The notes beneath the pieces were generated by a model that searched no databases, had not been told where the DNA came from, and worked only from the letters and a program-made list of their open reading frames with translations. Source: an uncultured Methanomicrobiales archaeon (GTDB lineage: Archaea > Halobacteriota > Methanomicrobia > Methanomicrobiales > Methanospirillaceae). From it: 64,000 nt of DNA. The position numbers and the translations under genes were made by a program. The DNA is taken from the NCBI GenBank assembly GCA_963697895.1, contig OY969100.1, positions 608,001 through 672,000 of the forward strand, in the 5' to 3' direction. Positions 2,107 to 29,471 of this stretch are shown here, piece by piece (the first letter of the stretch is position 1; every line of letters begins with the position of its first letter).

Positions 2107-2352
2107 ATATGTTCCAGAATACCGCTGCGGGCAGATAAATTTTCGGATGAGAGAACTAATCTGTTAACTTGTCCCAGAGTATAAGGCTTAATCGATTCTG
2201 GCAAAAACGAATAAGATATTAGGTCCCATCCCTGCTGATAGGGTAGTTGTCAATCGGGAGCAGGTACCTGATCCCATTGCCGCATGGCACTTCCTCCGGT
2301 AGCTGAAAGTAAACGGGGGAATATGAACCGGTCTTGGAAACGATATCCCATT

Positions 2353-2652
2353 GAAGATCCCTGTCCATAATGGGTCAGGAATCCCCGAAATATCCGAGAT
2401 GTTCCGCCGGAAAAGACGTCCCGCCCCTGCGGTTTATGGGTCGGATCTTTTATCGGATGGGTTTAGGATATCCCTGATTTTGCCCAACTACTGGAGGGGC
2501 GCTATTAAGCACCTTTTTAACCGGCAGTTATCAATCCTATTCGTTAAAAAGCGGATTATATCGATATTTTTGAAGGCAGTGTTCAGGGTTTTCCCGACAT
2601 GATATGTTAATCTCTGCATTTTTGGAAAAATACAGTTAAAGAGGGGTTATTT
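2353..2652. repeat. Dispersed ~300-bp intergenic element, copy 1 of 5
   Basis: Blocks GAAGATCC / GGATCTTTTATCGGATGG / GATATCC / GGAGGGGCGCTATTAAGCACC / GGATTATATCGAT / GTGTTCAGG / GGAAAAATAC / GGGTTATTT are shared with four other loci. Confidence 0.9.
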
Positions 2653-2720
2653 CATGCGAATGGATCGACAAAAGAGGCGCATTGAAGTGAGAAAATAGGA
2701 AAGAGTAAAGAGGGATTGAT

Positions 2721-2927
2721 TTAAACGGATTTTGCCGCGAGCTCAACATCCTCTTTTTTAATCGTCTTTCGTCCTGCATGCATTGCATATTTATTGGCCT
2801 CTTTGGCCAGGGATGCAATGTAGTCTTCAGCCTTTGCCACGAGCGAGGCAGCTGCATCGTTACCGACGCGGTCTGCACCACTTTTCTTCGCAATTCGAAC
2901 AATTGCTGCAATAGGTAAATCTGCCAC
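2721..2927 (-). CDS. Archaeal histone (HMf-like), copy 1
   Basis: 68 aa; LPIA..RI.K.SGA.RV, HAGRKTIK.ED. GTG start with GAGGT RBS. Confidence 0.95.
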   Translation of the reverse strand: MADLPIAAIVRIAKKSGADRVGNDAAASLVAKAEDYIASLAKEANKYAMHAGRKTIKKEDVELAAKSV

Positions 2928-2960
2928 CTTGATTACCTCAACAGATAGTTATTTATATTC

Positions 2961-2979
2961 TATTTATATCTTCCTGTCA
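2961..2979 (-). promoter_or_regulatory. BRE/TATA promoter of histone copy 1
   Basis: Minus strand TGACAGGAAGATATAAATA, conserved upstream of both histone copies at the same distance from the start codon. Confidence 0.65.
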
Positions 2980-3345
2980 AATTCACGATGGATCCTGCCG
3001 AAACCGAATTTTGAGTTTCCGAAATGCCACCGGGGTCGATCGGATTTTATATTTTTAAGGAAATTCACCGGGTAGGAAGGACGAAGGAATTTCTGCAATT
3101 CTTTGGAATCAAGGACATCCAGGCTCATCCAGATAGATCCCGAATCGAAGAGGAATACGAGAACTCTTCCGAACCTCGATCATTTAAGTCCATTTGTCGA
3201 AGAAAAGACAGAGGGGCCGGATTTGAGATTACCCGACCGAATAAATCATATCGGTTTTTCAGACAGCAAGAAGGGGCCACAGGCAGGAAGTCAAAAAGTT
3301 CGCCCCTCCCCAGCCGCCTTAAATTTCAGGTATCTTGTCAGCATA

Positions 3346-4751
3346 TCAGAAGCCGGTATAATCCCGTCCATCCCATTTTGCCCGGCCCTTCAGGTACAGC
3401 CACCAGGCAGGCAGGAGGAGAAGAGGGGCACCCATGAGAAAGATAATGCCTGATGCGGCAATGCCGGCGAGAAACAGAGTCGGTATTCCCAGGAGAATCA
3501 TATAAAGGAGGAATACCTTCGCATTGTACAACATAACCCCGGGAGAGAGTCCCATGAGGTAAACGGTAACCGCGAGGGCATAGAAGGAGACAGATCCCCA
3601 GACCACGAGGACAAACAGGAGGTAGCTGCCGTATCCCGTTATCAGGGAAACTGTGATGAGCAGAATGGCAGGGATCACCTGGAGAACGGAGTAGGTTGCA
3701 GCCTTGCTGGTGATCAGGCGGGCAACCCCGAGCGGGAGGCAGCTGTAGACGCCGGGCGTGTCAAACTCGGTTATCCACGTGAACATGGTGGATGAGATGA
3801 TCCCGGTGATCAGGGCAAAAAAAACGATCAATCCTCCCTCGAACAGCATGCCTGAAAGGAGCGAGAGGAAGAACCAGATGATTCCGAGGGGAAGGAGAAA
3901 GGAAAAGAGTGTATGGCCTATTCCATTCCCGCTCCGGTACAGATCAAGGAAGTCCTTTGTGGTCAGGGGGGCTCGGGGAAGATCCGGAGGTCGCGGGAAA
4001 CCGGCGTGAAGAGATCCGGGTAACATTTTTCCGTATCATGATACTCGGTGGTGAAGAGGCCGAAGGCGAGGAGAAAGGGAATAAAAATCAGCAACAGGGA
4101 AAGAACCAGTACGAGGGGGGAGAATGCAGCATACACAAGGAGCGGGGGGAAGAAGAGCAGCGGATTGATCCCGGTCGCGGCCCAGGCGATAACCCAGACG
4201 ACAATTCCTATGACAACGAGAACTGCCAGGACCAGCCGGGAACGGGTGTAAATGACCGAAAGAAGAAAGATTACGGAAAGACCACAGAGAAACGAAAGAG
4301 TGATCGAGAATAGGAAGAGCAGGGAGCCTGAAACTGGGATCCCGAGGAATGGTGAGGCTACCATGAAGCCGGCACCGAAGGGAAGGATCCAGAGGATGAA
4401 ATAATAGATGATATCCTTGATCACGAAGTTGAGAAAGATGAACCTCTCCGTGAACGGAAGCGTGCGGCCCGAATAGGAGAGGAGACTCGCATGCCCGAAC
4501 CTCCGGTTCATGACTTCTTTTCCCAGTAATCCGAATCCCCCGACCATCATGCCCATGACGACAAACAGCGCGACGGTGACAGAAAGGACACTCCCCCCCG
4601 GGATTGCCGCTCTTATGAGCGGGAGGAGGAGAGCGCTCATGACGGAGGCGGCAAATATCAGGATCGGGAACAGGGCGAAACTGACACTCCCAAAAAGGGT
4701 GGAGTGCAGCCGCCATTCCTCCTTCAGCATTGCGAAGAAGAGATCAAGCAC
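3346..4751 (-). CDS. ABC-type exporter membrane subunit, split by one frameshift near 3975 (probable assembly error)
   Basis: Hydrophobic ORFs 3963-4889 and 3346-4026 join at ...RIFP / APLTTKDFLDLYRSG. GTG start at 4751 overlaps the ATPase stop. Confidence 0.75.
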
Positions 4752-5469
4752 CTGAACCGCCTGTGATAAGGGAGACAAAAAAGTCCTGAAGGTGCGTTCC
4801 GTTCTTACGCACCTCATCGATCGTTCCGCTGTACAGCAGATTTCCCCGGTGAAGGATGGCAATCTCAGAGCAGAGATCTTCCGCCACATCGAGGATGTGC
4901 GTTGAGAAGAATATGGTGTTGCCTGCGTGCACGTAATCCACGAGATATCTCTTCACCTTCTCCTGTACCAGGGGATCGAAATTGATCAACGGCTCATCGA
5001 TGACGGCAAGGACCGGGCGGTGGAGGAAGGCCTGGGCAAACATCAGTTTCTGCCGGGTCCCCCGGGAGAGGTCCTTGCAGAGCACATCCCTTTTTTCGGA
5101 GAAATCAAGGAAATCAAACCACCATGCGATCTGTTCGGCCGAATCGCCCAGGTTACGGACACTGCTCACAAAATGCAGATATTCTTTCGCGGTGAGAAAG
5201 CTCGGGGGTGATTCCTGTTCGGGGATAATGCCCACCCGCTCCCGCACCCGAATCGGATCCGTGGCAGGGTTGAAACCGAGAACCCGGGCCGAACCTCCCG
5301 TGGGCCGGATCTGACCGGTCAGCATTTTTATCATCGTGGTCTTGCCCGAACCATTGGGCCCCAGCAGGCCGAATAACGATCCTCTGGCGACTCCAATGCT
5401 GACCCCGTTCACCGCCCGGGTCTCTCCGTACTGCTTAGAAATTGTATCCGTGGCTATGACCTGTTCCAT
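4744..5469 (-). CDS. ABC transporter ATP-binding protein (ABC-2/multidrug type)
   Basis: GPNGSGKTT, LSRGTRQK, VIDEP, STH. Confidence 0.93.
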   Translation of the reverse strand: MEQVIATDTISKQYGETRAVNGVSIGVARGSLFGLLGPNGSGKTTMIKMLTGQIRPTGGSARVLGFNPATDPIRVRERVGIIPEQESPPSFLTAKEYLHFVSSVRNLGDSAEQIAWWFDFLDFSEKRDVLCKDLSRGTRQKLMFAQAFLHRPVLAVIDEPLINFDPLVQEKVKRYLVDYVHAGNTIFFSTHILDVAEDLCSEIAILHRGNLLYSGTIDEVRKNGTHLQDFFVSLITGGSGA

Positions 5470-5778
5470 GCTGCTCCTTCCTGTTGTTTATGCCAAAGGT
5501 CAGATGAACATTATTTTCACGTTCATGTACATTTTCGTAACGTATGAATTGGTGAGAACATGGAGAAAAATAATGTCATGCGTAAAATAAAATAAACAAT
5601 GGGGAGGATCAATACGCTCGAGAAAATTAGTGCGGGTGATCACGGCCCTTCTAAAATTACAATGGGCCGGTATTTTTCAAAATTTTAACGGGCCAAGTAG
5701 ACCCTGAACCCGCCTCTACAGAACTCTCCAGAGCCGCGTCGCATACCCTTTTCGTTGCCGGTGTCGAACAAGTCAGGA

Positions 5779-6588
5779 ATGATCCGTGAACGCTTCCCGG
5801 TAATCCTCGTACACGGGTGGAACAGCCACCCCGGGGTCTGGAAGAGACTGGTTCTCCGGCTCGAGGCACTTAAAATTCCCTGCCGGAACTTTGATCATAC
5901 GGGATTGTGCGATATGGCATTGCCGGAGATCTCCGGGGCACTCGGTGAATACCTGCGAGGAGTGCGGAACGAGAACGGCTGGTACGGGCCGGTCGATATC
6001 GTCTGCCATTCGATGGGGACATGCATCGTCCGGTACCTTCTTGAAGTGACAGACGGAACCGTACGAAGCCAGGCTGTCCGTCAGCTGATCGGCCTTGGAC
6101 CACCAAACAACGGCTCGGCACTTGCAGAACTCTTCAATGACCCGGTACGGGGTGAAGAGATCATCAACCGGCTCACCGGCGTCTTTGTCCCGCAGGGATT
6201 CGATCCGGTCTCCGACCGCATCGTTCAGGATGTACGACCGGGAAGCCCGGTCATGCGAACCCTTCGCACTGCCGGCTTACGACCAGACATCACCTACCGG
6301 ATAATCGTGACCACAAATCCCGAAGACATCCCCGGATTTTTCCCCTGGTTCGAGGGAAAGACCTGGGAGATTGACGGGGACGGAAGATACCGGGAGACCT
6401 TGGACGGGGACGGGGTGGTGCCGCACCGGGAGTCGGTTCTTCCGGGTATTTCTCTCGATATCCTGTCGGCATCCCATGAAAAGGAGGAGCATCTGCCGTC
6501 TCCTGAACGGTACTGCCATATCAACCTGCCGAAAAATCCCCTGGTCATCGACCGGATCATCCAGTATCTGACGAGTCAGGCGGGGTGA
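5779..6588 (+). CDS. Alpha/beta hydrolase (lipase/esterase-like)
   Basis: PVILVHGW oxyanion motif, VCHSMG nucleophile elbow, GPPNNGS, DGVVP, C-terminal His. Confidence 0.85.
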   Translation: MIRERFPVILVHGWNSHPGVWKRLVLRLEALKIPCRNFDHTGLCDMALPEISGALGEYLRGVRNENGWYGPVDIVCHSMGTCIVRYLLEVTDGTVRSQAVRQLIGLGPPNNGSALAELFNDPVRGEEIINRLTGVFVPQGFDPVSDRIVQDVRPGSPVMRTLRTAGLRPDITYRIIVTTNPEDIPGFFPWFEGKTWEIDGDGRYRETLDGDGVVPHRESVLPGISLDILSASHEKEEHLPSPERYCHINLPKNPLVIDRIIQYLTSQAG

Positions 6589-6819
6589 GGGATAAACACA
6601 CAAACGGATAAAAATTTTCTACAACTCCGTAACCCGCCGGATAAATTGCCAAAACGGTATGAAATCTCATAACCCGATACCCGAGGGCGAAACTGTTCGT
6701 TCAGCTTTTAAGCCAGTAAGCCTGCCCGCTGGTCGCTGCCTGTTGGATTACCCTTATCTGATGGGATGTTCTACCTTATCCTGATAATCAGGAGTATCTA
6801 CAATCCGGAAGGAAATAAC

Positions 6820-7188
6820 ATGAGAATACACGCGATCGTTTTAATCCTGTTCATTCTCGCACTATCCATCGGTTGCGCCACGGCCAGCGGCGTCCAGATG
6901 GGCAGCTACATGGACGTTACTTATGTCAACGTCGTGACCGACACCAGCCTCCGGAGCTTCCCGGCATCCGCGGACGTCCCGGCCGAGGCATCGTACTCGA
7001 TCCAGGCGAAAGGTGTCCTTGTGCAGACCCCGACGGGATTCGTCCTGCAGCCGGCAACCGGCTCGATCACCGCATTCATGAATGTTCACACGCCGGACCT
7101 TGTATACTCGGAGACAACCACGGCCAGCGGGTACATCGACAACTTCGTCAAGAACATGTATTACCAGGACGGGGCATTCCGTATCTGA
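6820..7188 (+). CDS. Secreted beta-rich hypothetical protein (possible sheath/cell-surface protein family)
   Basis: ATG at 6820, signal peptide MRIHAIVLILFILALSIGCATA, S/T/Y-rich beta-like mature part, biased codon usage. Confidence 0.75.
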   Translation: MRIHAIVLILFILALSIGCATASGVQMGSYMDVTYVNVVTDTSLRSFPASADVPAEASYSIQAKGVLVQTPTGFVLQPATGSITAFMNVHTPDLVYSETTTASGYIDNFVKNMYYQDGAFRI

Positions 7189-7298
7189 ATGGTATATGAA
7201 CAGAGAGAGGAACGGTATCGATCTTTCCTTTTTCTCCTCTTTTATCAGCTCATTACCGGCAATGGCGGGAAGTTCAGATCATTCGCATGGCATAACCC

Positions 7299-8141
7299 AT
7301 GAATAGAATCACAAAAATCATAACGGTCTCTCCAGTCTGGATAGGGACATCGGTTGCGGTCTCCGTGCTGGTAACAGCATCCAGTCTCTCTGGGATCCTG
7401 CGGGAAAATACCTATACCCAAGAGACCTATCGCCGGGCGCTTCAGTCGACCGTTCAGGATTATGTTACCTTCACCGTAGTGATACTGCTCCTGGTCAGCA
7501 CCTGTTTTGTTGCGAACCATTCAATCAGGGGATATCTCGTCTGGCTGGGGGCCTGCCTGTACCTTCTCTATTCGTTTATGATCTCCTCCTTTGCTCTCCC
7601 CTTCTCGTTCCTGTTCCTCATGTACGTCCTGATCATAGGTCTGTCATTTTACACGCTGGTCGGCGGGATGATGGCGGCTGACTGGGATACGATCGCACCC
7701 GTCCTGCGGGGAAATCCGGTGGCAAAAGCGGCCGGCGCCCTGCTTCTGGTTATCGGCGTCGTCTTCTCCCTTTTTTGGCTGTCAGAGATCATTCTGAATC
7801 TTCCTGCTGCCATGAATTCAATGGTACCTTCAGATATGCAGATCCCGGTCAGCCCGGTGCATTTCCTGTTCCTGTGCATCCTGCTTCCGGGGATCATCAT
7901 CACCGCAGTCTTACTCTGGAAAGAGAATCTCCTTGGCTATTTCATGGCGGTGCCGTTGCTCGTTTTTGCCGCAGCTGTGGCGCTGGGGATAATTGGTCTG
8001 GTTATCTCTTCCGCCATCCACCACCTGCCGTACTCGGTGCCGGTACTCGTAATATCCGGAATAATTCTGGTATTTAGTACGTGCTTCTCCTGCCTGTTCT
8101 TAAAAGAGGTGAAACAGGATGGGAAAACCATCCGGCCATAA
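7299..8141 (+). CDS. Multi-pass membrane protein of unknown function
   Basis: About 8 hydrophobic segments in 280 aa. Confidence 0.8.
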   Translation: MNRITKIITVSPVWIGTSVAVSVLVTASSLSGILRENTYTQETYRRALQSTVQDYVTFTVVILLLVSTCFVANHSIRGYLVWLGACLYLLYSFMISSFALPFSFLFLMYVLIIGLSFYTLVGGMMAADWDTIAPVLRGNPVAKAAGALLLVIGVVFSLFWLSEIILNLPAAMNSMVPSDMQIPVSPVHFLFLCILLPGIIITAVLLWKENLLGYFMAVPLLVFAAAVALGIIGLVISSAIHHLPYSVPVLVISGIILVFSTCFSCLFLKEVKQDGKTIRP

Positions 8142-8262
8142 GCAGGTAAACACCCTGGGATGCGTACAGAACCCTCATGAATCTCCCTACCTGCACGTTC
8201 CCGGGTTCGGGATTCAGCAACGAGCGGGAATTTGCCAGATATTAATCGATTGAAGGGTCAAA

Positions 8263-8595
8263 TCAGGTCCGATCGCCTGATGAAAACGACCTCATGCGAT
8301 CATCTTTGTGCTGGTGGTATTCCACCATTCTCCTCGCCTCTTCGACCGCATGCGGTATTTCCGGGATTCCGGTGAAGAGAATGCGTATCCCGTCGATATC
8401 ATCCTTGAGATAGGCAGCTTCAGGATAGAGCAGGAGGGTGATCTCCCCTTCCGGCCCGAAATGATGCTCCTCAACCTCTCCCCGCATATACCGTTCCCGC
8501 TGCTGCGTTGTCGGTGCAGCATATTTATTCTCGAATCTGAAGATACCCACGATACTTCCTGGCCTGTCTGGCCCGATATACGTGAGGGTCTCCAT
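8263..8595 (-). CDS. Hypothetical protein
   Basis: 110-aa ORF with globular composition; TTAAATA-like box upstream. Confidence 0.7.
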   Translation of the reverse strand: METLTYIGPDRPGSIVGIFRFENKYAAPTTQQRERYMRGEVEEHHFGPEGEITLLLYPEAAYLKDDIDGIRILFTGIPEIPHAVEEARRMVEYHQHKDDRMRSFSSGDRT

Positions 8596-8687
8596 CAGGC
8601 GTTATTTAAGGTATGGCGGGCGGGCTGAAAATGAATCATTAAGCCCGGGTCATGCGTCAGTATATAGCGTGCCGGGAGAGATCGAAC

Positions 8688-8855
8688 TTATCTCCTTTTT
8701 TTATTCCTCTGGTTAGCAGCGATTTTTTCTTTGGACGTCATCGGGGCAGGGGTGTCCCTGGCCCCGGGACTCTTCCCTTCTGATCCTGCGGGTGCTTTTA
8801 CATCAGTGCTCTCCGGCCTGCGGCTTGAACCTTTCCTGTTGCCCTGATCTTTCAT
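8688..8855 (-). CDS. Small basic disordered protein (55 aa; not in the ORF track)
   Basis: Manual translation: MKDQGNRKGSSRRPESTDVKAPAGSEGKSPGARDTPAPMTSKEKIAANQRNKKRR*. Resembles its neighbour at 9104-9256. Confidence 0.55.
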   Translation of the reverse strand: MKDQGNRKGSSRRPESTDVKAPAGSEGKSPGARDTPAPMTSKEKIAANQRNKKRR

Positions 8856-9103
8856 GATTACTCTTACGGTGCGTAATCACATAAACATGCTCTGAAAAAT
8901 AGCGAATTTAAACGGATGGAAAGCATATAATTCTCAATTTCACACTTGTTCCCCATAATTTATTCTGCTGGAGTATTATCCGGCCGCGGGTGTTTCAGAA
9001 AGACGAACGTGACCTAGATCCTCTGAAGAGGGCAGATCCCTGGAGCCGGGTAGATCTCGGGGACTTTCCGCGATTGGTGCCTTCGTGGGATCTTGTCCTC
9101 GGT

Positions 9104-9256
9104 TTATTTCTTTCTCTTCATCTTCGCCGCATTCTTATCCTTCAGGGAGTTGATCTTCTCCTTTGACAGGGTTTCTGCGGCCATGGATGGTGGAGGAGCT
9201 TTGGGATTATCCTTTGCCTTGTGGCCTTTTGCCTTTTGTTCGACCGGTTTTTTCAT
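9104..9256 (-). CDS. Small Lys-rich protein (50 aa)
   Basis: MKKPVEQKAKGHKAKDNPKAPPPSMAAETLSKEKINSLKDKNAAKMKRKK. TTTATAT TATA-like box about 25 nt upstream on the minus strand. Confidence 0.6.
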   Translation of the reverse strand: MKKPVEQKAKGHKAKDNPKAPPPSMAAETLSKEKINSLKDKNAAKMKRKK

Positions 9257-9380
9257 GAGAATACGTGAATAGCTGGAAATATAAACATGTGCTTTGGAAA
9301 TCGTGATATCAACCTGCATTTGATATTAATCACCGCTGACTGGAGACCTTTAAAAATTCACCTTCCATCATTGAGAGCAT

Positions 9381-9728
9381 TCAATCAGGATATATACTAT
9401 CATGTCCGGGGCGATGAGCAGTCTTTGGGGCTTTTTTTGGAGGGATGGGGGTCAGGTCAAAGATGTACGTGCAGGAAAGGCATCTAAGTTTTTCTTCTGA
9501 TTCATCTATCAGAATAATATTCATACTATGACATTCCGGGCAGGTTATTCCCTCCGTGCCATCTTGTTTTCTGTATCCCCGGTCTAAGACGATCATATCT
9601 TCGGCGCATATAGGGCAGATATACCCAATCGCTACATATTGAGTGGTTATTCCCCCATTTTTACGCTGAAAGATGCGTTCAAGAATTGAATCACAAACCG
9701 GGCATTTTTTTGTCGGATGGTTTTCCAT
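9381..9728 (-). CDS. Double zinc-ribbon protein
   Basis: Four CxxC pairs: CPVC, CPIC, CPEC, CLSC. Confidence 0.7.
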   Translation of the reverse strand: MENHPTKKCPVCDSILERIFQRKNGGITTQYVAIGYICPICAEDMIVLDRGYRKQDGTEGITCPECHSMNIILIDESEEKLRCLSCTYIFDLTPIPPKKAPKTAHRPGHDSIYPD

Positions 9729-9871
9729 AGCAGATATTATGCATTCATACTTTTTTTTCCTACGCCTTTATTGCATATGTTCATGGGCCGCGGAATATCA
9801 TCACCCCGGTTTATGAATAATTTTCTCTATTTTCTTATCATCAAGGACAAAAATGAATTATACAAAAAAAA

Positions 9872-10762
9872 TTATCTCCTTACCATCATATTTCTGAGCC
9901 TGATCCCGTTAACGAGCAGCATAAGCCCCACTAAAAAGGCGATAACGCCAACAACTACCGTGAGCGCTTTCAATATACCGATCGGATTGAAGATTATGAG
10001 GACCCCGAGCACCAGCGAAATGATCGCAATGATGAGCCTGCTGGGAAAGCCCTCAGGAATTGCCCCACGACCTTTTTTTGCCCGGCCAAGCAGAACGATG
10101 GCACTTGCAAACATCCATACCGCGAGTATCGCGAGGATTACCGCCATCCACAGGACCAGGGGCAGGTAAAATGCGATAATTCCGACAACAATGATCCCGA
10201 TTCCCCGGTAAAAGGTATTACCGGGAAGCACCCTGAAGGGATGAAACGCTATCCCGTTCCATGTGATGATGATCCCGAGGCCGAGAATTGCCAGGGGAAT
10301 CAGGAGCTGTACGATGCCTTTAAACGTAAGCAAGGGGTTTAAGACAATAAATATCCCGAAAAGCAGAAGCAGAACCCCGACGAGGACCTGTTCTTTCCAG
10401 GACTTTTTCTGACCATCCAGGATCTCCTCTTCTTCACCCGTTTTTTTCCGGGTACCTGCTATCAGGGTAACCACGGTATCCCCGATCATGAGGAGGAGGG
10501 GGGCATCGTTGACGAGATGAAGGTAGGGGTGGACCTTCGGGTCATGGTTATCGCGGTGGACATGCCATTCTGTCTTCTGTTCGTGGGCATGGTACTGTCC
10601 CTTTCGGTAACTGGCGATGGTTCCCGGTGTGGGAACGTTGATCGGGGATTTCACCCAACCGGTGTCCAGGGGCTCAGTAACCGATTCTTTCGGCACGATC
10701 ACCTCCCATACCCCCTCATGAAGCGGGCCGAGGAATTCGTCCAATGTAGTTACGATCTGCAC
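9872..10762 (-). CDS. Membrane protein with His-rich soluble N-domain and HdeD/DUF308-like 6-TM C-domain
   Basis: C-terminal repeated helices ending in F/LNP; N-terminal YHAHE..WHVHRD.HDP..HP.LH. Confidence 0.8.
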   Translation of the reverse strand: MQIVTTLDEFLGPLHEGVWEVIVPKESVTEPLDTGWVKSPINVPTPGTIASYRKGQYHAHEQKTEWHVHRDNHDPKVHPYLHLVNDAPLLLMIGDTVVTLIAGTRKKTGEEEEILDGQKKSWKEQVLVGVLLLLFGIFIVLNPLLTFKGIVQLLIPLAILGLGIIITWNGIAFHPFRVLPGNTFYRGIGIIVVGIIAFYLPLVLWMAVILAILAVWMFASAIVLLGRAKKGRGAIPEGFPSRLIIAIISLVLGVLIIFNPIGILKALTVVVGVIAFLVGLMLLVNGIRLRNMMVRR

Positions 10763-11012
10763 CTTCCTGTCGTTATTCAGTAAGAGATTGTCCCTGGATT
10801 AATACCTCATCCATGATCGGATCCTGGGGAGATTTCAGTAAACTCTATTTTCTTTATAATGTGGCGTTGTGAGATAATTTATCCCTGATGAGTTCAATCG
10901 GGAGTGAATGAAAGGATTAAGTGAAGAGATGAATGCGAAGAATGTGGTTTTGGTGCATGGGGCGAGGGCAGCATATATCGACCGAAAGCGTGGTGGGGGT
11001 TTAATGATCTTA

Positions 11013-11311
11013 GTAAGGTGCAGTCCCATGCCGTTTCAGGAAGTTACGGATCTCCGCGTCAATCTGCCCAAAAAGTCGCCCTGCCCATGCGATTCAGGGG
11101 CCGGATCTTTTATTGGATGGTTTCCGATATCCCAGATTTTGCCCAGGAGCTGGAGGGGCGCTGTTAAGCACCTTTTTTCCCGATAATTCTCGTTTTTTTC
11201 TGATAAAGAGTGGGTTATATCGATAATTTTGGACGCGGTGTTCAGGATTTATTTTGTAGCAGGATGACGATCCCGGTTTTATGGGGAAATACGCATAAAA
11301 TGGGGTTATTT
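11013..11311. repeat. Dispersed ~300-bp intergenic element, copy 2 of 5
   Basis: GGATCTTTTATTGGATGG / GATATCC / TGGAGGGGCGCTGTTAAGCACC / GGTTATATCGAT / GCGGTGTTCAGG / GAAATAC / GGGGTTATTT. Left end approximate. Confidence 0.9.
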
Positions 11312-11541
11312 TTGGACAAAGGGAGGGAGATTAACTGGGATCCAAGAAGAATTGTCCTTCTCATCACGATAAATGTGAATTAAGGAGATACATTATTCCC
11401 CATAAAATCTCCCCACGTGATGAATCCTACCAAAAATCCAATACCATGATCTGCCCGCCAGGGAGCAAGAAAATGAGTCGGGGACTATCGGATATATATG
11501 GCGGGCCTTAAAAAAATACACGGAAAATGATCGTTTGGCAC

Positions 11542-11934
11542 TCATCCCTCCTTTTTCATCGGTCCCCCATGGATCCGTACCAGATACATGCCGATTCCCA
11601 CCGGTATCAAGAATGTCAGGGCATAGTACACGAACACATCGGGGCCGTAATAGGTAGTCTGGAACAGGCGGACAATGAACAGGTAGTCGAGCACAACCGC
11701 GATCACAGTCCATGCCAGCCCGACTATTGCGTAATAGGTGAGGGGAAGGTTCCGTGCCCGAAACCACCACCAGGTAATCGCAATCGTGAATGGAGTGAAG
11801 ACGGCAGTGATGATCCAGCCCATGTTGCTCGCAAAAGGCGATAAGAACAGAAGAATCGATGCAAGGTACCCGAACGCCCAGAACAAAATGCCAAGCCCCA
11901 CTGTGTCTTTGATCCACTCCTTCATGCGAAACAT
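11542..11934 (-). CDS. Small 4-TM membrane protein
   Basis: 130 aa, four hydrophobic helices. Confidence 0.8.
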   Translation of the reverse strand: MFRMKEWIKDTVGLGILFWAFGYLASILLFLSPFASNMGWIITAVFTPFTIAITWWWFRARNLPLTYYAIVGLAWTVIAVVLDYLFIVRLFQTTYYGPDVFVYYALTFLIPVGIGMYLVRIHGGPMKKEG

Positions 11935-12226
11935 CTTCGCCGTTTACCCTGTTATGATTTATGGAGAGGGATCAGAGGATGTCCTCATGACCTGTTTTCA
12001 AAATAAAGAACACTTGCATTATTCCCGCGATCTTTGTAAATCTCACCCATGAATCGGGCTTTGATTATTTTTTTCGATCTATCCTGATGGCGTCTGAACA
12101 TTATAAAAAAAAAGATTGCATCCTTTTTCTCAGGAGTCACCTGTTCGCATCGCGATCCTTGCTTCCGGATCAGGAGACTGACCGCCGGGTCTGTCCCCAC
12201 GCTGAACGGATTTCTCCGGCATGGGT

Positions 12227-13435
12227 TTACTCGTGCCGTAAGGCATCGATGGGGTTTAAGTTTGCCGCCTGCCATGCCGGGTATATCCCGCAGGCGAGAC
12301 AGATGAGGATCCCGAAGACAATCCCTTCCACAACCGGGAGCATACTTGAAACGGTGAACAGGAACCTGGTCGTGTCGAGCAGCAGGGCACTGATGGCATA
12401 TCCTGCAAGGATGCTTAAGCCTCCCCCGATTATGCCCCCGACGACCCCGATGATTGCGGCTTCGTAGATGAACATGCTCATCACTCCCTTCTTCCGGGTG
12501 CCGATGCTCCGCATGATGCCGATCTCCTTGATCCGTTCATTTACCGACATCATCATGACATTGAAGATTGATACCCCGGCGACAAGCATCGAGATTCCCC
12601 CGATAGCGGTCACAAATGTCGTGATGGTGCCGAACGTTTCATAGATGGTTGCGAGTGTCGCCTTGCTGTCGGTGACGGTCACCGTTTTTTCCCGGGGATT
12701 TCGGTTGAGCTGTTCCTCGATGGCCGTTTTTACATCGGCCGTATCGCCGGTTTTAACTTTCACCACTACTTCGTCAAACGCGTTGTTCCGGTCGTAGGTG
12801 GTCTCGAACCAGTTCTCGGTCACGACAACGGCATTATCGGTACTGACATCGAAACTCATCCCCCGCTCCTCGATGATACCGGTAACCCGGAGGGTACCTT
12901 TTTCGCCATTGATGCCGATCGAAATCCGCGATCCAACCTTGATATTATGATCGCTGGCAAAGGTGGATCCCACCAGGCAGCCGGATTCCCCGTTGTTGTA
13001 GTCCCCGGCCGAAAGTTTCAGCAGGTCGGGAACATTCTCCGGAGGAAGACCATAGATCACCGCCACGATGTCGTCGCCGTTGACCCCCACTTTCATATGT
13101 TCCGCAGTCTGGAGCACGGGGATGGCGACATTGGGGGAAACAATCCGTTGGATCTCCTGGTAGTCCTGATCGGAGAGTTTCATGGATGTGACGCCCCCGG
13201 AGCCTCCGCCGGGCGGTCCCATGCCGCCGGACCCGCTCCCGCTGTAGGGCGTGACGATCACGCTGTCCCCGACTGAAGAGAGGCTGTCTGAAACCGTCAA
13301 TACCACGCTGTTTCCAAGGATTCCCATCGACGCGATCGCGACGACACCGATCACGATACCGAGCATCGCAAGCGACGAGCGTAACATATGAAGGCGGATA
13401 TTCCGTTTCGAGATCTCCCAGAATATCGTGCTCAT
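12227..13435 (-). CDS. ABC transporter permease (MacB/FtsX family)
   Basis: RSSLAMLGIVIGV, NVMMMSVNERIKEIGIMRSIG, YPAWQAANLNPIDALRHE. Confidence 0.93.
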   Translation of the reverse strand: MSTIFWEISKRNIRLHMLRSSLAMLGIVIGVVAIASMGILGNSVVLTVSDSLSSVGDSVIVTPYSGSGSGGMGPPGGGSGGVTSMKLSDQDYQEIQRIVSPNVAIPVLQTAEHMKVGVNGDDIVAVIYGLPPENVPDLLKLSAGDYNNGESGCLVGSTFASDHNIKVGSRISIGINGEKGTLRVTGIIEERGMSFDVSTDNAVVVTENWFETTYDRNNAFDEVVVKVKTGDTADVKTAIEEQLNRNPREKTVTVTDSKATLATIYETFGTITTFVTAIGGISMLVAGVSIFNVMMMSVNERIKEIGIMRSIGTRKKGVMSMFIYEAAIIGVVGGIIGGGLSILAGYAISALLLDTTRFLFTVSSMLPVVEGIVFGILICLACGIYPAWQAANLNPIDALRHE

Positions 13436-14103
13436 GACGCAATTCTCCCATCCACGATCCGGATGATCCGGTCGGTATATTCGGCGACCTCCGGATCGTG
13501 CGTGACGATGATGATCGTCGAGCCTTTTTTATTCAGGTCGGTCATGAGCTGCATGATACTCTTCCCGGTTTTGGAATCGAGGTTTCCTGTCGGTTCGTCA
13601 CAGAGCAGGATGTCGGGACTGTTGATGAGTGCCCGTGCAATCGCGACGCGCTGCTGCTGCCCGCCGGAAAGCTCGAGGGACGTATGGGTATAGAGCTGTT
13701 CTTCCAGCTGGACCGCCCTTAGCACTTCCTTCGCCTTTTTGGGATCTACGACCGTTCCGGATTTCAGCATCAGGGGAAAATTTACATTTTCAATCACGTT
13801 CAAGAGCGGAAACAGGTTGAAATACTGGAATACAAACCCGATCCGGTCTCTCCGGAGATCGGCGAGCTGGTCGTCGGACAGGTCGCGGATCCTGCTCCCG
13901 CTGATGAAAATCTCACCGGAGGTCGGGATGTCAAGGCACCCCATAAGGTTTAACAGGGTGGACTTCCCGGAACCGGATGGGCCCATGATTGCGATGAACT
14001 CGCCCCGCTCAACCTCAAACGAGATCTGATCCAGTGCGATCACATCTCCTGACCGGAGCGGGTAGATCTTCGCGACATCGGAGAACTGGATGACCGGTTG
14101 CAT
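13432..14103 (-). CDS. ABC transporter ATP-binding protein (LolD/SalX type)
   Basis: GPSGSGKST, LSGGQQQRVAIARAL, DEPTGNLD, VTHD. Confidence 0.95.
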   Translation of the reverse strand: MQPVIQFSDVAKIYPLRSGDVIALDQISFEVERGEFIAIMGPSGSGKSTLLNLMGCLDIPTSGEIFISGSRIRDLSDDQLADLRRDRIGFVFQYFNLFPLLNVIENVNFPLMLKSGTVVDPKKAKEVLRAVQLEEQLYTHTSLELSGGQQQRVAIARALINSPDILLCDEPTGNLDSKTGKSIMQLMTDLNKKGSTIIIVTHDPEVAEYTDRIIRIVDGRIAS

Positions 14104-14114
14104 ACTACCCTCCC

Positions 14115-15371
14115 TTACCGGTTCTTCCGTTTCTTCACGTACAGGTACCCGCCGCCTGCAAGGGCAGTGATGATGACAATGCCGCCGATCACCGGCAGAA
14201 TGCCCAGCTGTGCAGTATCCTGCGTTGCAGTGCTCGCTCCGGCGAGGCTTACCGGTTGCTGGGATGTGATCACGTTCCCATCTTTGTCCTTGTAGGAGAG
14301 CTGGAGGGGTACACTTGTGGTACCGTTATCTGTGGAAAATGTTACCTCGAAGCTGCCAAAGTCATCCGGTTTGAGCGCACCGATGATGTAACTCCGGAAC
14401 GGGTCCAGTGGAACCGCCGGAGAAAGGGAGGTGACCGAGACACCATTTGCGGTTACCAGGCCGGCATTCGTGATATCACCGGTAACGTGGTATATCCCGT
14501 TCTCTGTGGTGACTTTGATATTGGTGATCACCAGGTTCGCTTCCTTTTTATCGACCACGAACGTGACCGGCAGGGAGGTGCTCACGGTATGGACATTGTC
14601 TCCGTTATTGTAATTCACCTTCAGCGTCAGAGTCGTCGGTTGATCCGGAATAACCGTAAAGTTCACCGTAGTACTTTCGCCGGGTGCAAGTTTGCCGATA
14701 AAGTTCTTTACCGGCATGATGGTTGCATCGGTGCCGGAGACCTCAAGAATCACATTGTTCACCTCGTTCGTGCGGGGATTGGCAATCTGGACAGAGATGG
14801 TATCTTTGCTTCCCGGTGAAAATGTGTCCGGCTGGCCGGTTACGGTCAGCATAAGGGGAGTGTTGTCCACGTGAACATCCGCCTGCTGCCAGAGACTCAA
14901 TGTCCCGAAATTGGACAGGGAAAATGTCGGGTAGTATACCCCGTCTATGCCGTTCGCAATCACCGAAAAGGTATACGAACGTGTCTGCAGCGGCCCGATA
15001 ACAGAGGAAGCATCATATGTACCGCTGGTACGCTGGATGTTGTTGTCGCCGAATGATGCATGGTTGACCGATACCGTCTGATTATTATTCCCGTTCGTGA
15101 CGCAGGCGGTAACGGTACCCTTGTCACCGGTGAAAAAGACTGCAGGATTATAGGTAATACTGGAGACGTAGACATTCATCCCGGCAGGAGTAGCGGTCAC
15201 TGTTTCCGCGTACACTGACGTGACACAGAGGCTGATACCGAGGAGGAGAGCGAGGACCAGGATTAACCTTTGGACGTTCTTTCTGGTTCCCGGGGTAATC
15301 GGATCTCCTCGTTTTGTTTTCCGATTGACCGGTTTATTCTCTGTACCGGTCACGATTTCTCGTAGTTGCAT
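14115..15371 (-). CDS. COG1361-type S-layer/Ig-like domain protein with C-terminal membrane anchor
   Basis: Signal/TM segment, Thr/Val-rich Ig-like repeats (IGKLAPGES, IGALKPDDFGSFEVTF), C-terminal TM plus basic tail. Start set to the ATG at 15371. Confidence 0.85.
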   Translation of the reverse strand: MQLREIVTGTENKPVNRKTKRGDPITPGTRKNVQRLILVLALLLGISLCVTSVYAETVTATPAGMNVYVSSITYNPAVFFTGDKGTVTACVTNGNNNQTVSVNHASFGDNNIQRTSGTYDASSVIGPLQTRSYTFSVIANGIDGVYYPTFSLSNFGTLSLWQQADVHVDNTPLMLTVTGQPDTFSPGSKDTISVQIANPRTNEVNNVILEVSGTDATIMPVKNFIGKLAPGESTTVNFTVIPDQPTTLTLKVNYNNGDNVHTVSTSLPVTFVVDKKEANLVITNIKVTTENGIYHVTGDITNAGLVTANGVSVTSLSPAVPLDPFRSYIIGALKPDDFGSFEVTFSTDNGTTSVPLQLSYKDKDGNVITSQQPVSLAGASTATQDTAQLGILPVIGGIVIITALAGGGYLYVKKRKNR

Positions 15372-15392
15372 CCTGTTCTTTCTCCGGATTTT

Positions 15393-15414
15393 TGTTGTAA
15401 AAATATTTACAACA
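15393..15414. promoter_or_regulatory. Palindromic operator (probable TrmB-family site) A
   Basis: Perfect inverted repeat TGTTGTAAA-AATA-TTTACAACA in the divergent promoter region. Confidence 0.65.
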
Positions 15415-15462
15415 GATATCCCAAACCTATTCGATACGTGAACAATTAAATATATTTGTTGA

Positions 15463-15484
15463 GGTAGTAAATATTTTAACAACT
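15463..15484. promoter_or_regulatory. Palindromic operator B upstream of trmB-like gene
   Basis: GGTAGTAAA-TATT-TTAACAACT matches site A. Confidence 0.55.
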
Positions 15485-15501
15485 GAAATAGATAATTAAT
15501 T

Positions 15502-16326
15502 ATGCAACATATTCCCGGAGCACTCATCGTCTCTCTTACCGATCTGGGATTATCGAATTACGAGGCACGCACGTACGCCGCCCTCGTCCTTTTCGACGCA
15601 ACAGAGGTAAAAGAACTGGTTGATTTTCTCGGGATCTCCAAACCCAGCGTCTATGAAAGTCTTGACAGGCTTACGGAAATGGGCCTTGCGGTAAAGAGAA
15701 ATTCAAAACCCGCAATGTACAGCCCGATACAGCCGGAAATAGCGATTAAAATCCTGATGGAACGCCACACGAACTCCGCGGAGATCGCCCGAAGCGAACT
15801 CAGCAAACTGGAGCAGGAAAAGATTCACACGGATCGTTCCGATGCAGTCTGGACCGTATACGGGGATTCAAATATCAATCATAAAATACAGTCCATGATC
15901 CGCAATGCCCGGCATAGTATTGAATGCACCATGGCTGAGCGATACCTGCCGTTGCTGGAAGGGGTCAGGCTCAAAAAGATCGACCTGAAGCTGACTGTCC
16001 TTTCGGAAGACCCTGATCTGATCGATACGCTGAAACAACAGTTCCCTGGCAAGAACCGGGTTATTACCGTTCGTTCTATAAAAACAATCCTGGAACACCT
16101 CCCCCGCTATCCCGGGATCGGCGATATCGGGAATTTCATCAAACTGGAAAATATCCTGGAACTGATCGTCGACGATGAAGAACTTCTCTCCATACCCCCG
16201 ATTCCTTCCATCCATATGATGGGCATGAACACCTCGAATAAAGCGCTGATCCTGCATTCACAAGCGATGAGCAGAGGGTTCTGGGCGATGACATTACAGT
16301 CGGGGGACCCTGACAAACAGAAATAA
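15502..16326 (+). CDS. TrmB family transcriptional regulator
   Basis: LGLSNYEARTYAAL, wHTH ISKPSVYESLDRLTEMGL, VWTVYG, C-terminal effector domain LIVDDEE. Confidence 0.92.
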   Translation: MQHIPGALIVSLTDLGLSNYEARTYAALVLFDATEVKELVDFLGISKPSVYESLDRLTEMGLAVKRNSKPAMYSPIQPEIAIKILMERHTNSAEIARSELSKLEQEKIHTDRSDAVWTVYGDSNINHKIQSMIRNARHSIECTMAERYLPLLEGVRLKKIDLKLTVLSEDPDLIDTLKQQFPGKNRVITVRSIKTILEHLPRYPGIGDIGNFIKLENILELIVDDEELLSIPPIPSIHMMGMNTSNKALILHSQAMSRGFWAMTLQSGDPDKQK

Positions 16327-16505
16327 GATCCGCACCGGACCAGGCCGCTGCGATGCAGCTGAGGGATCATTGCCGGTTTCCATTTTTTTCTGGCAATTGT
16401 TGCAGTCCATCCGCATCTGCTCCGATGAATATATCCGACTGGCACAGTATCCCCGATGCCAATTATGATCGGGATATCACCGCATTTTTGGGAGAGAACC
16501 CCAAA

Positions 16506-16802
16506 GAAGATCCTTCTCCATCCTGTGTCAGGAAACCTCGTATATTACCGAATTCGGCCCAAAAAGAAGCCCCGGCCCTGATGTTTGGGGGGCGGATCTT
16601 TTCCGGGATGGTTGCTGATATCCATCATTTTACCCGTGTGCCGGAGAGGCGCTGTTAAGCACCCTTTTAATGCGTAATTCTCACTCTTATTTTCGAAAGA
16701 GCAGATTATATCGATAATTTCAGAGGCGGTGTTCAGGATTTAGTTCGGAGGGGAATGGCGATGCCTGTTTCATGGAGAAATATGCTCAAACAGGGATTAT
16801 CT
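16506..16802. repeat. Dispersed ~300-bp intergenic element, copy 3 of 5
   Basis: GAAGATCC / GGATCTTTT / GATATCC / GGAGAGGCGCTGTTAAGCACC / GATTATATCGAT / GCGGTGTTCAGG / GAAATAT / GGGATTAT. Confidence 0.9.
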
Positions 16803-16843
16803 GGGGATGTTTAAAAGTACAGAAAGGAAAAAAAGAGATCGAT

Positions 16844-17050
16844 TCAGGCGGACTTTGCCGCGAGCTCGACATCCTCTTCCTTGATCGTCTTTCGTCCTGC
16901 ATGCATTGCAAGTTTATTGGCCCCTTTGGCCAGGTTTGCAATGTAGTCTTCTGCTTTCGATACCAGTGCAACAGCCGCTTCGCTTCCGACGCGTTCTGCA
17001 CCACTTTTCTTTGCAATTCGTACAACTGCAGCAATAGGTAATTCTGCCAC
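16844..17050 (-). CDS. Archaeal histone (HMf-like), copy 2
   Basis: 68 aa, 55/68 identical to copy 1 by manual comparison. Confidence 0.95.
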   Translation of the reverse strand: MAELPIAAVVRIAKKSGAERVGSEAAVALVSKAEDYIANLAKGANKLAMHAGRKTIKEEDVELAAKSA

Positions 17051-17083
17051 CTTGATTACCTCAACAAATAGTTATTTAAAGAG

Positions 17084-17102
17084 TATTTATAACTTCCTGT
17101 CA
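17084..17102 (-). promoter_or_regulatory. BRE/TATA promoter of histone copy 2
   Basis: Minus strand TGACAGGAAGTTATAAATA, homologous to 2961-2979. Confidence 0.65.
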
Positions 17103-17612
17103 AAAACGCGTTGGATCCGGCCGAAACACGAGTGATTTGCACCTATACCGGAATGCTGCCTGTTCGATTGAATTATTTTATTTTCATACACTCAGCAACG
17201 AGGGAGGATAGAAAGCCTGTATTATGCGGTTTTTCGCATTGTATCGGTTGACTTCCCGGACCGGGCAGAGAGACGAGACCCGGGAACATCCTGAACTGAT
17301 ACATGCACAACAGGCAGATTCGTTCATTGTCACCCACTCGCTGCAGCCTTCCGGGATTGGGAATACTCGCTGCCTGAACCAGTAAATAGTCCGCCTCCCG
17401 CGACAGAGTCGTTACCCCCTATAAATACGTGATGAAACGAATTCCCGGAAGGTCGGAATCGGTATTAAACCAGGATTTTATCCGGCCGAAGAAGAACCAC
17501 CATGACATCACATACCATCCTGTTCCACTCTCGAAGAACAATCAAGGGTTAAACGAGAACAGTATTAAGATCATCACGTGTATGGTTTCACAACAGAGAG
17601 CGAACGGGTGAC

Positions 17613-24688: not shown

Positions 24689-24785
24689 AATGTATCTACC
24701 CATGTTTGCTGGGAACTTTAAAAAAAGTATCTGTGGTTAAAGTAAAAGTTATCAATCTGATCAGGATGGAGATGAGGATCTTACT

Positions 24786-25080
24786 GAAGATCCTTTTCGT
24801 GCTGCGCCAGGAACCCTGTATCTCCCCGAAAACGGCCCCAAAAGACGCCTCGCCCCTGTGGTATCGGGGGTATATCTTTTATCGGATGGTCTGCGATATC
24901 CCCGATTTTATCCTCGTGCTGAAGGGGCGCTATTTAGCACGTTTTTGGGCGGCGATTATCGTTTATTTTCGTTAAAGGGCGGATTGTATCGATGATTTTG
25001 AGGGCGGTGTTCAGGGGTTTTCTGAGAGGGGGATAGAGACTCCATATTTTCGGGAAAATACGCCCGAATCTGGGTTATTT
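24786..25080. repeat. Dispersed ~300-bp intergenic element, copy 4 of 5
   Basis: GAAGATCC / ATCTTTTATCGGATGG / GATATCC / GGGGCGCTATTTAGCACG / GGATTGTATCGAT / GCGGTGTTCAGG / GGAAAATAC / GGGTTATTT. Its right end coincides with the start of AT-rich DNA. Confidence 0.9.
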
Positions 25081-25211
25081 GGATATAATAAGAGCAATAT
25101 CTATTAAGAAGTGAGGGTTCCTATTAAAGCTGTTTAGAAGTTTTTTGTTGAAGAAGAAGAGGAAAATCGTACAAAATAAAATAATAAATGCGATGATATT
25201 ACATTCTTATG

Positions 25212-25712
25212 TCATTTACTCTTTCCGTTTGTTGATTTTAATAAGTTATTCAGTTCTTTTTCTATTATTTCATCAGTTACTCCATATTGCCTTTCCAAAT
25301 TACGACATATTTCTGTGAGTTGAGTGTCAACACTTTCAAGTGATAAATTTATTTCTTCAAGTTCTTCTACCATAAATTCTCGTCCATCTTCAGTATTCAT
25401 CTGGATTGCTCGATCCCAAAAATAATGATGTGTAAGCCAATTTCTTTTGTCCAAAGCTTCTCGTATTGTTACTTCAAATTTATCGGAAATCTCTATTTTT
25501 TGGGTTAAATGTTTAATTAAATGACCTAATGTTTTATGGAAATAAGAATTTAGTAAAATATCATATGAGAGGTGAATCTCTTTGTCGCGTTCTTGAAAAT
25601 CTAATATTATTAAAAGAATCCCCAGCTGACGTTCAATACATTGGTTAAAATAGATTGCACTACCGAATAGAGCATAAATTTCTTTTATTTCCTCTTCAAC
25701 ATGGGAATTCAT
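25212..25712 (-). CDS. Helical HEPN-like protein
   Basis: TLGHLI followed by LDKRNWLTHHYF (RxxxxH RNase motif). Confidence 0.7.
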   Translation of the reverse strand: MNSHVEEEIKEIYALFGSAIYFNQCIERQLGILLIILDFQERDKEIHLSYDILLNSYFHKTLGHLIKHLTQKIEISDKFEVTIREALDKRNWLTHHYFWDRAIQMNTEDGREFMVEELEEINLSLESVDTQLTEICRNLERQYGVTDEIIEKELNNLLKSTNGKSK

Positions 25713-27749: not shown

Positions 27750-29024
27750 GTGATTTTGATGGGGGTTAAACGTGATGATTTAGTAAAGGAACTATTATCT
27801 ACCTTGGAATTTAGTGCGAAAGGTGTAATAATCAAAGGAGCTGAAAATGTAGCATCATATCAAATACTGTCGAATTCTCTAATGTCTGAATTAATTAGGG
27901 ATGGTTATGATGGAAAATTAAATAGAATTCGTTACAAACTACCAGTACCTCGGGGATCTAATATTTCTTTTCCCTTTATATCTTCTTTGAGAAAGTTGCA
28001 TGAAAGTGGCAATCAATCTTATTCTCATCTTAAGGGTTTAATTGATGAGGAAATCTCACAAATCGAAGTTAATGTTCCTATTGAAAAATTCTCTATTTAT
28101 TTTCAAATTGGAGTTACTTTCGATACAAAATTAAAACCGGTAATAATTCAGGACACTTCATTCAATATTTTACAGTTCCAAGATCTTGAACAATTAATGA
28201 AAGATCCAGAATTAATAAGCAAAACAGCAGAAATTATGAAGTCAGAAGGATTCGATATCATCTTTAAGGACTTTTCATATCTGTTTACGGAAATCTATGC
28301 AAGAAATGAAGATTATGCAATTGCACATACTCTTGAAAATGCAAATTCATTAGTATCAATTTTAACATATCAGAAATATTGGAATCAAGAATCAATCACT
28401 GCTTTAGGAATTCCTTCTTCGTATACAAATTTAGATATAAATGCGATTTTCGTTTTTAAAGATTCGAAGTTCATTAATATTCATTATACACCCTCTACTT
28501 CAAAAATGACCAACATATCATTTAACAACAGTGAAATTAAAAAAATAGAGGAATTTAATAATAGATTACAAAATGCTCATGACAAAAATAAAGATATTAT
28601 CCTTCAAGCTTTGAATGTTTATCATATAGGTCTAACCGAAGAACGCATGGGGATCGCTCTTTTTAATTTCTGGGTTGCCATTGAGAAGATATGCCTTAAA
28701 AATGAAAGCATAACGGAAAATGAAGTTAAAAAACGTGTCTCCACCTTTTTAAATCCTGATGATGAATACCCATTAGACCGACTTTATGAACTTCGGAATC
28801 AAATTGCGCATCACTCTGCTTATGAATTGGTAAATCAATATGATCGAAATTTAATAAAGCTAATATCTGGTATCTCAATTCATTTCTTTTTAATATATTT
28901 GGCACAATTTCATCCACAGGAAATACAAAAAATATTTGTTTTTTTAAAGGATGATAATTCTCAACTTATTAGAGATAAAGAATATATTGATTATATTTTA
29001 AAAATTAGAAAAAACCATCGATAA
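27750..29024 (+). CDS. ApeA-like HEPN domain protein
   Basis: C-terminal LFNFWVAIEKI ... LYELRNQIAHH pattern. Start may be the ATG at 27759. Confidence 0.72.
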   Translation: MILMGVKRDDLVKELLSTLEFSAKGVIIKGAENVASYQILSNSLMSELIRDGYDGKLNRIRYKLPVPRGSNISFPFISSLRKLHESGNQSYSHLKGLIDEEISQIEVNVPIEKFSIYFQIGVTFDTKLKPVIIQDTSFNILQFQDLEQLMKDPELISKTAEIMKSEGFDIIFKDFSYLFTEIYARNEDYAIAHTLENANSLVSILTYQKYWNQESITALGIPSSYTNLDINAIFVFKDSKFINIHYTPSTSKMTNISFNNSEIKKIEEFNNRLQNAHDKNKDIILQALNVYHIGLTEERMGIALFNFWVAIEKICLKNESITENEVKKRVSTFLNPDDEYPLDRLYELRNQIAHHSAYELVNQYDRNLIKLISGISIHFFLIYLAQFHPQEIQKIFVFLKDDNSQLIRDKEYIDYILKIRKNHR

Positions 29025-29440: not shown

Positions 29441-29471
29441 ATTTGATGAGGGGGTTAGCCCGTCACTAAAT

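Follow-up and report, generated by a model that had tools for sequence, protein, structure and literature searches.

The question raised by this locus is whether an archaeal histone gene can be inherited together with a DNA element that loads or positions the histone. In the 64,000-nt stretch analysed here (the window; positions 608001–672000 of contig OY969100.1 from an uncultured Methanomicrobiales archaeon, whose genome is a single 2.09-Mb contig of 53.8% GC), two histone genes each lie next to a copy of a repeat unit of ~320 nt. An earlier, sequence-only reading took element, histone gene and promoter for a duplicated module, possibly a histone-loading or positioning system. We find that the unit is an old, multi-copy, non-coding intergenic repeat without general link to histone genes, and that its two pairings with a histone gene in the window are best read as the result of one local block duplication. 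At the 3′ ends of genes, the unit itself may well serve as an architectural or boundary element to which a protein binds.

BLAST and profile searches found 16 copies of the unit in the genome, five of them within 27 kb of the window and all five in the same orientation. These are c1 (2342–2664, plus strand; nhmmer E=1.9e-88), c2 (11004–11323, plus; E=8.7e-91), which has no histone gene nearby, c3 (16498–16813, plus; E=1.3e-90), c4 (24774–25092, plus; E=5.3e-91), which lies 3′ of a 166-aa open reading frame (ORF) without Pfam match and near an OLD-family nuclease gene, and c5 (29170–29442, plus; E=1.6e-71), which has a shorter left end and next to which, 30 nt away, an 8xMP membrane-protein gene has its stop codon. 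With two further copies, at genome positions 735017–735340 and 1609598–1609920, they form the seven close ("c" type) copies. The other nine are distant ("u" type) and include three head-to-tail pairs (genome 72361–72982, 1485184–1485806 and 1839635–1840350) with spacings of 304, 307 and 396 nt. The pair near 1839 kb adjoins a HicA-like small ORF. Alignments divide the unit into a left and a right module, which in c1 occupy ~2342–2492 and 2493–2656 of the plus strand. The right module is 164 nt long in 13 of the 16 copies and 161–163 nt in the other three; right modules are only ~55–70% identical, yet nearly indel-free. The units have a GC content of 41–52%, as against 53.8% for the genome, and the proteins adjoining them are not paralogues of one another. 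It is also noted that the contig of one related metagenome strain skips 9757–11561, which comprises a DUF308 gene and c2.

Histone gene 1 (2721–2927, minus strand; PF00808 E=3.4e-15) and histone gene 2 (16844–17050, minus strand; PF00808 E=1.7e-14) both start with GTG and encode proteins of 68 aa, the size and fold (~65–70 aa) of HMf-type archaeal histones. There are five histone genes in the whole genome, and only these two adjoin a unit. The right end of the repeat lies 57 nt from the stop codon of gene 1 and 31 nt from that of gene 2 by the unit boundaries of this analysis, which bears out the proximity described in the sequence-only reading. The claim that element, histone gene and promoter occur twice ~14 kb apart holds as well: pairwise alignment finds ~2342–3005 and ~16498–17128 homologous without a break at an offset of 14123 nt; the homology begins at the element's left end, crosses the spacer and the coding sequence (CDS) and takes in ~80 nt of promoter. 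The promoter and leader segments (2928–3005 and 17051–17128, both minus strand) are homologous to each other. Over the upstream 100 nt the window pair is 72% identical, whereas the nine other pairs among the five genes show 37–46%, the level of unrelated sequence; the common promoter that had been noticed is thus confined to the window pair. The two proteins share 56 of 68 residues (82%), one more than the earlier count of 55. The same third base is found in 42 of the 55 same-residue codons of the window pair, the highest share, and in 41 of 59 and 34 of 55 in the two other close pairs.

Judged by neutral sites and promoter, the histone genes of the window are sisters, and the two modules most plausibly go back to one local block duplication of ~650 bp that took in unit, spacer, histone CDS and promoter, which would account for the pairing of unit and histone gene seen here. 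Two observations weigh against this reading. The histone 2 protein is nearer to the histone encoded at 773 kb (86.8% identity) than to histone 1 (82%), and copies c1 and c3, which are 66% identical, are not mutually closest, c2 and c3 reaching up to 72%. Identities among all pairs of six close copies range from 61 to 72%, and the differences lie inside sampling error. Metagenome contigs from four DNA runs, which derive from related strains ~91–95% identical, span c1 with histone gene 1 and c3 with histone gene 2, and the arrangement is therefore stable among close relatives.

Beyond these two modules the linkage disappears. Pairing occurs in two of the 16 units and two of the five histone genes, which contradicts the proposal that the element is co-inherited with its own histone. 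Searches in other genomes gave the same outcome from both sides. In 29 element loci of other genomes of the family, taken with up to 1.5 kb of flank on each side where the contig allows, tblastn with both histones found no histone gene. Conversely, R1, a sequence-only model of the right 164 nt of the unit, found no full unit when it was run with filters off against 29 histone loci from 29 other genomes of the family; its best match there was a 64-nt A/T-rich partial one of 14.8 bits (E 0.0016), compared with 103 bits for the own-genome positive control. Synteny of element and histone gene elsewhere, which the sequence-only reading had proposed to check, was thus not seen. That reading had itself named a lack of linkage in other genomes among the findings that would tell against it, and because this is what was found, its linkage premise fails; the part of the model that stands is the helical A/T lattice described below, which is kept across genera. 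With this outcome, the attractive but mistaken idea that a histone gene is accompanied by a loading site of its own falls away.

The unit is widespread in the family and multi-copy in many of its genera. Among 100 other genomes of the family, R1 finds matches in 45, which represent 12 of 18 other genera and have at most 12 matches each; with the threshold set at E<=1e-4, 7 of 15 genomes of the family are matched versus 2 of 75 in five sister families. The full unit of left and right module is recognisable in several other genera, and the architecture is kept in 13 of the 19 genera of the family. BLASTN with one copy against 40 relatives gave no match. An exact pattern joining two invariant motifs had 0 matches in genome, metagenome and viral collections, a pattern that was probably too strict since the profile search did find relatives. 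No earlier description of the element was found in the literature searched, in Rfam, or in plasmid or phage collections, and as far as these literature and database searches reach, the element is undescribed.

Architecture of the repeat unit

A protein-coding gene or pseudogene is ruled out, as no reading frame is open across the copies: stops occur in at least five of six frames of every copy, and no frame is stop-free in more than one copy. A structured non-coding RNA was rejected on the grounds of no conserved fold, no covariation and no match to a curated family. Rfam returned no match at the gathering score, the best at E<=10 being a 13.7-bit chance match. RNAalifold gave −1.1 kcal/mol with three invariant pairs for the 16 right modules and no consensus fold for the left modules, and consensus folds of both strands of six copies contained weak helices only. 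A terminator-like 3′ hairpin proposed from units of other genera was also discarded; 54.7% of its cells are paired, but 409 of 500 shuffles equal or beat this pairing, and so do slid controls. As for mobility, no consistent terminal inverted repeats were found in six copies examined, target-site duplications were not noticed in the alignments, where no systematic search for them was made, and blastn against 72,556 plasmid and 50,697 phage records gave no match. A scan for sigma-70 promoters and terminators gave nothing useful, such a scan not being applicable to archaea.

The unit carries a helical lattice of A/T-rich tracts. The recurrence of A/T tracts at helical spacing, remarked on in the sequence-only reading, was borne out by Fourier analysis of dinucleotides composed of A or T (WW), in which each of the 16 units ranks among the highest 5% of 459 intergenic-like windows. 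In the band of 9.8–10.8 bp, the seven close copies lie in the top 0.6–3.7% of 481 intergenic-like windows and in the top 0.7–4.7% of 2000 random genome windows; copy c1 is also recorded in the top 4–5% of intergenic-like windows. No background window reaches the power of five of the nine distant copies. Averaged over the 16-copy alignment, the A/T profile has 22 peaks, spaced by 8–13 nt or by two to three times that distance. The period that fits best is 10.2 in the right module; in the left, with its scale stretched by gaps, it is 11.3. The lattice persists through 30–45% sequence divergence and is seen in other genera too. The corresponding power for dinucleotides of G or C (SS) reaches the top 5% of genome windows in two of the seven close copies. 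Pentamers composed of A and T only number 19–41 per 320 bp in the units; the median is 7 for the genome and 14 for intergenic DNA. Phased A/T tracts of this kind would also mean intrinsic curvature, and a 1992 paper on HMf reportedly describes a preference for phased adenine tracts. The candidates for DNA binding in this genome are the five histones, a gyrase A with a six-bladed C-terminal domain, and Alba, a further chromatin protein; MC1 was not found in the genome.

Superimposed on the lattice are invariant or near-invariant short motifs at fixed spacing. They comprise GCTATTAAGCACC with T runs behind it, a TTTTC block, a core rich in A/T of the type AAAnAGcgGATTATATCGATAATTTT, GTGTTCAGG, which starts ~13 nt past the TATA-like part, and also GAAAATACGC and GGGTTATTTGG. 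In c1, a core resembling a transcription factor B recognition element (BRE) and TATA box, GGATTATATCGATA, together with the GTGTTCAGG block ~13 nt further on, occupies 2553–2587 of the plus strand, and GTGTTCAGG is invariant in six close copies. The core of the unit, cGAAA..GATTA(T/A)ATC, resembles the pattern upstream of the tRNA genes of the same genome, CGAAA...GATATA / CTTTATAA. Conservation across genera is highest in the promoter-like core and the next ~25 nt, which read GTGGACACCgcTTCCAcTGGA.

Archaeal transcription terminates at oligo-T. Runs of at least four T number 70 on the forward strand of the units versus 38 on the reverse, and a run of at least five T is present in 13 of 16 units on the forward strand and in 9 of 16 on the reverse. 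With oligo-T runs on both strands, transcription that arrives from either side would be expected to end in the unit. Its position in the genome is in keeping with such a function. The right end of the unit faces the 3′ end of a gene 30–170 nt away in 9–10 of 13 loci, the convergent neighbours being the two histone genes, the 166-aa ORF, the 8xMP gene, a tRNA-Glu gene, four others and one doubtful ORF; at the other three loci the next gene is co-directional and 367–559 nt away. Crude ORF calls in other genomes make 16 of 27 downstream neighbours convergent. Such a placement at gene ends agrees more with a boundary or a terminator than with the promoter of an ordinary gene.

One further motif deserves mention as a lead. 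A dyad, TTCCnnTGGA, is present ~10–25 nt past the TATA-like box in 18 of 29 units of other genera, as counted on the alignment, and its core is the core of the origin recognition boxes (ORBs) in this archaeon's own replication origin (oriC) beside orc1. Considering that the centre of the dyad consists of one or two bases, it cannot be an RNA hairpin, which argues for protein-DNA binding. The dyad is absent from all 16 units of this genome, which hold GTGTTCAGG at its position instead, and neither of the two orc1/cdc6 genes has a unit nearby. The idea that the unit is a replication origin or ORB cluster was rejected on these two counts, and for the same reason the ORB-like dyad is a lead and not an explanation. 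The probable oriC itself (genome 1710514–1711325), an A/T-rich spacer of 810 nt next to an orc1/cdc6 gene, contains at least five ORB-like boxes, TTCCACTGGAAAT, TTCCTGTGGAAAT, TTGCAGTGGAAAC, TCTACTGGAAAT and TTCCAGTGGAAGC, several of which are flanked by GGGGT/ACCCC. The second, weaker orc1/cdc6 gene lies at ~2074 kb.

Readings of the unit

We propose, at a probability of roughly 0.55, that the unit is a protein-bound architectural or boundary DNA element at gene 3′ ends. It would act as DNA, and not as protein or folded RNA, by virtue of three features: the ~22 A/T-rich peaks on a ~10–11-bp lattice over ~30 helical turns, typical of curved or protein-wrapped DNA; the invariant short motifs at fixed, nearly indel-free spacing; and the BRE/TATA-like core inside the unit. 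The oligo-T runs on both strands, twofold more frequent on the forward one, would block read-through, and the internal promoter-like core perhaps fires only a short transcript. The putative wrapping partners are histones, of which there are five genes, or gyrase.

Several points weigh against this proposal. Both the promoter activity of the BRE/TATA-like core and the terminator role are inferred from sequence, and the neighbour genes on which the gene-end placement depends come from a crude longest-ORF call. The P-values for periodicity were obtained from homologous copies and hence are not independent tests. Sixteen of 20 units of other genera lie in the top 5% of WW power, but they were ranked against the background of the present genome, a crude standard for them. 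Of the differences, 34% are class-preserving substitutions (A<->T, G<->C), where composition predicts 33%, so that this test shows no added sign of selection on A/T-ness over and above the conserved columns. A short RNA without structure or an antisense transcript is possible too.

A more ambitious form of the proposal, which we put forward tentatively and think unlikely to hold, is that the unit is a natural DNA-wrapping platform, with ~30 phased A/T tracts in 320 bp and maintained in many copies throughout the family, that would seat histone oligomers, or a different wrapping protein, gyrase for example, at gene ends. If true, it would set boundaries of chromatin or supercoiling there and would constitute the first known family of positioning sequences in archaeal genomes; the ORB-like dyad of other genera could then tie the unit to Orc1/Cdc6. 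As a test bed, the unit would serve for in vivo sequence-directed positioning of histones, gyrase or another protein, for boundary action at gene ends, and for the behaviour of promoter-like cores inside such DNA.

The rival that survives best, though we regard it as unlikely, makes the unit a generic site of histone nucleation, that is, a high-affinity seat and chromatin boundary at gene ends genome-wide, not specific to histone genes, on which 320 bp would hold ~10 dimers. The genome encodes five histones, and a periodicity of ~10.2 bp is found in all units and kept across genera. According to PMC3691661, archaeal nucleosomal DNA has 10-bp WW repeats offset from SS repeats, and HMfA/B histones prefer alternating A/T and G/C motifs (PMC10151503). 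However, micrococcal nuclease sequencing (MNase-seq) shows archaeal nucleosomes to disfavour A/T-only pentamers (PMC3691661), and the units hold 3–6 times the genome median of these excluded pentamers. The SS periodicity is weak, with two of seven close copies in the top 5%, and the GC content of the unit is under that of the genome. Wrapping, moreover, needs no invariant motifs of 9–13 nt at fixed spacing.

A small transcription unit, which we hold to be decidedly unlikely, would use the core to drive an RNA of ~40–90 nt, unstructured or antisense to the 3′ end of the convergent neighbour, and the copies would be a family of small-RNA genes with a variable middle. The resemblance of the core to the host tRNA promoters speaks for it, as does the geometry of the right module. 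The invariant block (GTGTTCAGG in six close copies, GTGGACACC in other genera) starts ~13 nt past the TATA-like box, and the usual archaeal distance from TATA to start would put the start site at or just past that block; T runs follow ~35 and ~75 nt further downstream, and the right end points into the convergent gene in the 9–10 of 13 loci mentioned above. In contrast, a small-RNA family is hard to reconcile with the lack of conserved secondary structure, covariation or an Rfam family, and with the better conservation across genera of the promoter-like part and the first ~25 nt than of the putative RNA body. The left 150 nt and the helical lattice would stay unexplained.

It is improbable that the unit is a decayed mobile element, either MITE-like (MITE, miniature inverted-repeat transposable element) or the relic of an integrated replicon, which would now be functionless and would lie where insertions are tolerated. 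The copies are multiple, intergenic and clustered (five in 27 kb) and include tandem pairs; one related strain replaces or lacks 9757–11561 with c2; and the ORB-core dyad in 18 of 29 other-genus units hints at a replicon origin. Yet copies only 55–72% identical keep their length and motif spacing, which indicates purifying selection over decay, and the architecture is kept across 13 of 19 genera. The six copies examined lack consistent terminal inverted repeats, the units of this genome lack the dyad, and plasmid and phage blastn as well as viral, metagenome and genome pattern searches gave no match. Lastly, it is highly improbable that element, histone gene and promoter make up a functional cassette, with the element loading or positioning the adjoining histone and being inherited with its gene: the cassette is present twice and close relatives in metagenomes keep both, but the pairing is limited to two of 16 units and two of five histone genes, is missing from the 29 + 29 loci of other genomes, and is accounted for by a single duplication event.

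Other features of the window

Between c4 and c5, the minus strand carries the OLD-family gene (25911–27575), whose product combines an ATPase and a TOPRIM nuclease (matches to AAA_15, AAA_21 and an OLD-like TOPRIM). It is flanked by ORFs without Pfam match (25212–25712 and 27750–29024) in addition to the two copies, and the region may be a defence island. After c2, ~900 nt (11320–12227) contain no credible gene. A 174-aa ORF next to c2 (11393–11917) and a 96-aa ORF (11985–12275) were considered and rejected; both are rich in Cys, His and Arg and look non-coding. Two short repeats are also present, namely five head-to-tail copies of a 27-nt repeat, ATCCCGGAGATCCTTCATACCTCTTCC, at 36963–37124, three of them identical, and three copies of a ~57-nt repeat at 46485–46696 with a spacing of 77–78 nt. 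A tRNA gene at 31701–31775 on the minus strand (62.6 bits) is the sole Rfam match in the window.

Comparison with known systems

The protein-bound boundary element proposed here can be compared with several kinds of repeated or protein-binding DNA. The repetitive extragenic palindromes and bacterial interspersed mosaic elements (REP/BIME), the enterobacterial repetitive intergenic consensus (ERIC) and the Correia elements are multi-copy, non-coding bacterial sequences found beyond gene 3′ ends and between convergent genes. Among them are elements to which architectural proteins or gyrase bind, and elements with a promoter or terminator. The unit is similarly multi-copy, non-coding and placed at gene ends. 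What defines REP/BIME, ERIC and Correia elements is a palindromic hairpin or terminal inverted repeats, and their length is smaller, whereas the unit is archaeal, ~320 bp long, and no conserved hairpin or terminal inverted repeat was found in it. With MITEs the unit has in common the size range, the intergenic multi-copy distribution and the local clusters. It differs from them in having no terminal inverted repeats, in copies that are old (55–72%) yet length-constrained, and in that no partner transposase was seen.

Likeness to ORB and mini-ORB sequences is confined to other genera, whose units carry the ORB-core dyad next to A/T-rich palindromes; the 16 units of this genome have no dyad, none adjoins the orc1/cdc6 genes, and there are many copies per genome. 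Families of promoter-bearing small-RNA genes share with the unit a BRE/TATA-like core, conserved flanks, a variable middle and downstream T runs. In the unit, by contrast, no structure, covariation or Rfam family was found, and the promoter side is the best conserved part, not the RNA body.

The closest comparison is to archaeal positioning sequences. [quoted passage not shown] The unit departs from them in its wealth of A/T-only pentamers, which nucleosomal DNA avoids (PMC3691661). No sequences like Clone20 or 601 have so far been identified in genomes according to the authors of PMC10151503. Studies of archaeal chromatin rely on an artificial positioning sequence. The unit, unlike such sequences, is natural, 320 bp long and multi-copy, with invariant motifs and a TATA-like core, and offers these studies a concrete natural substrate.

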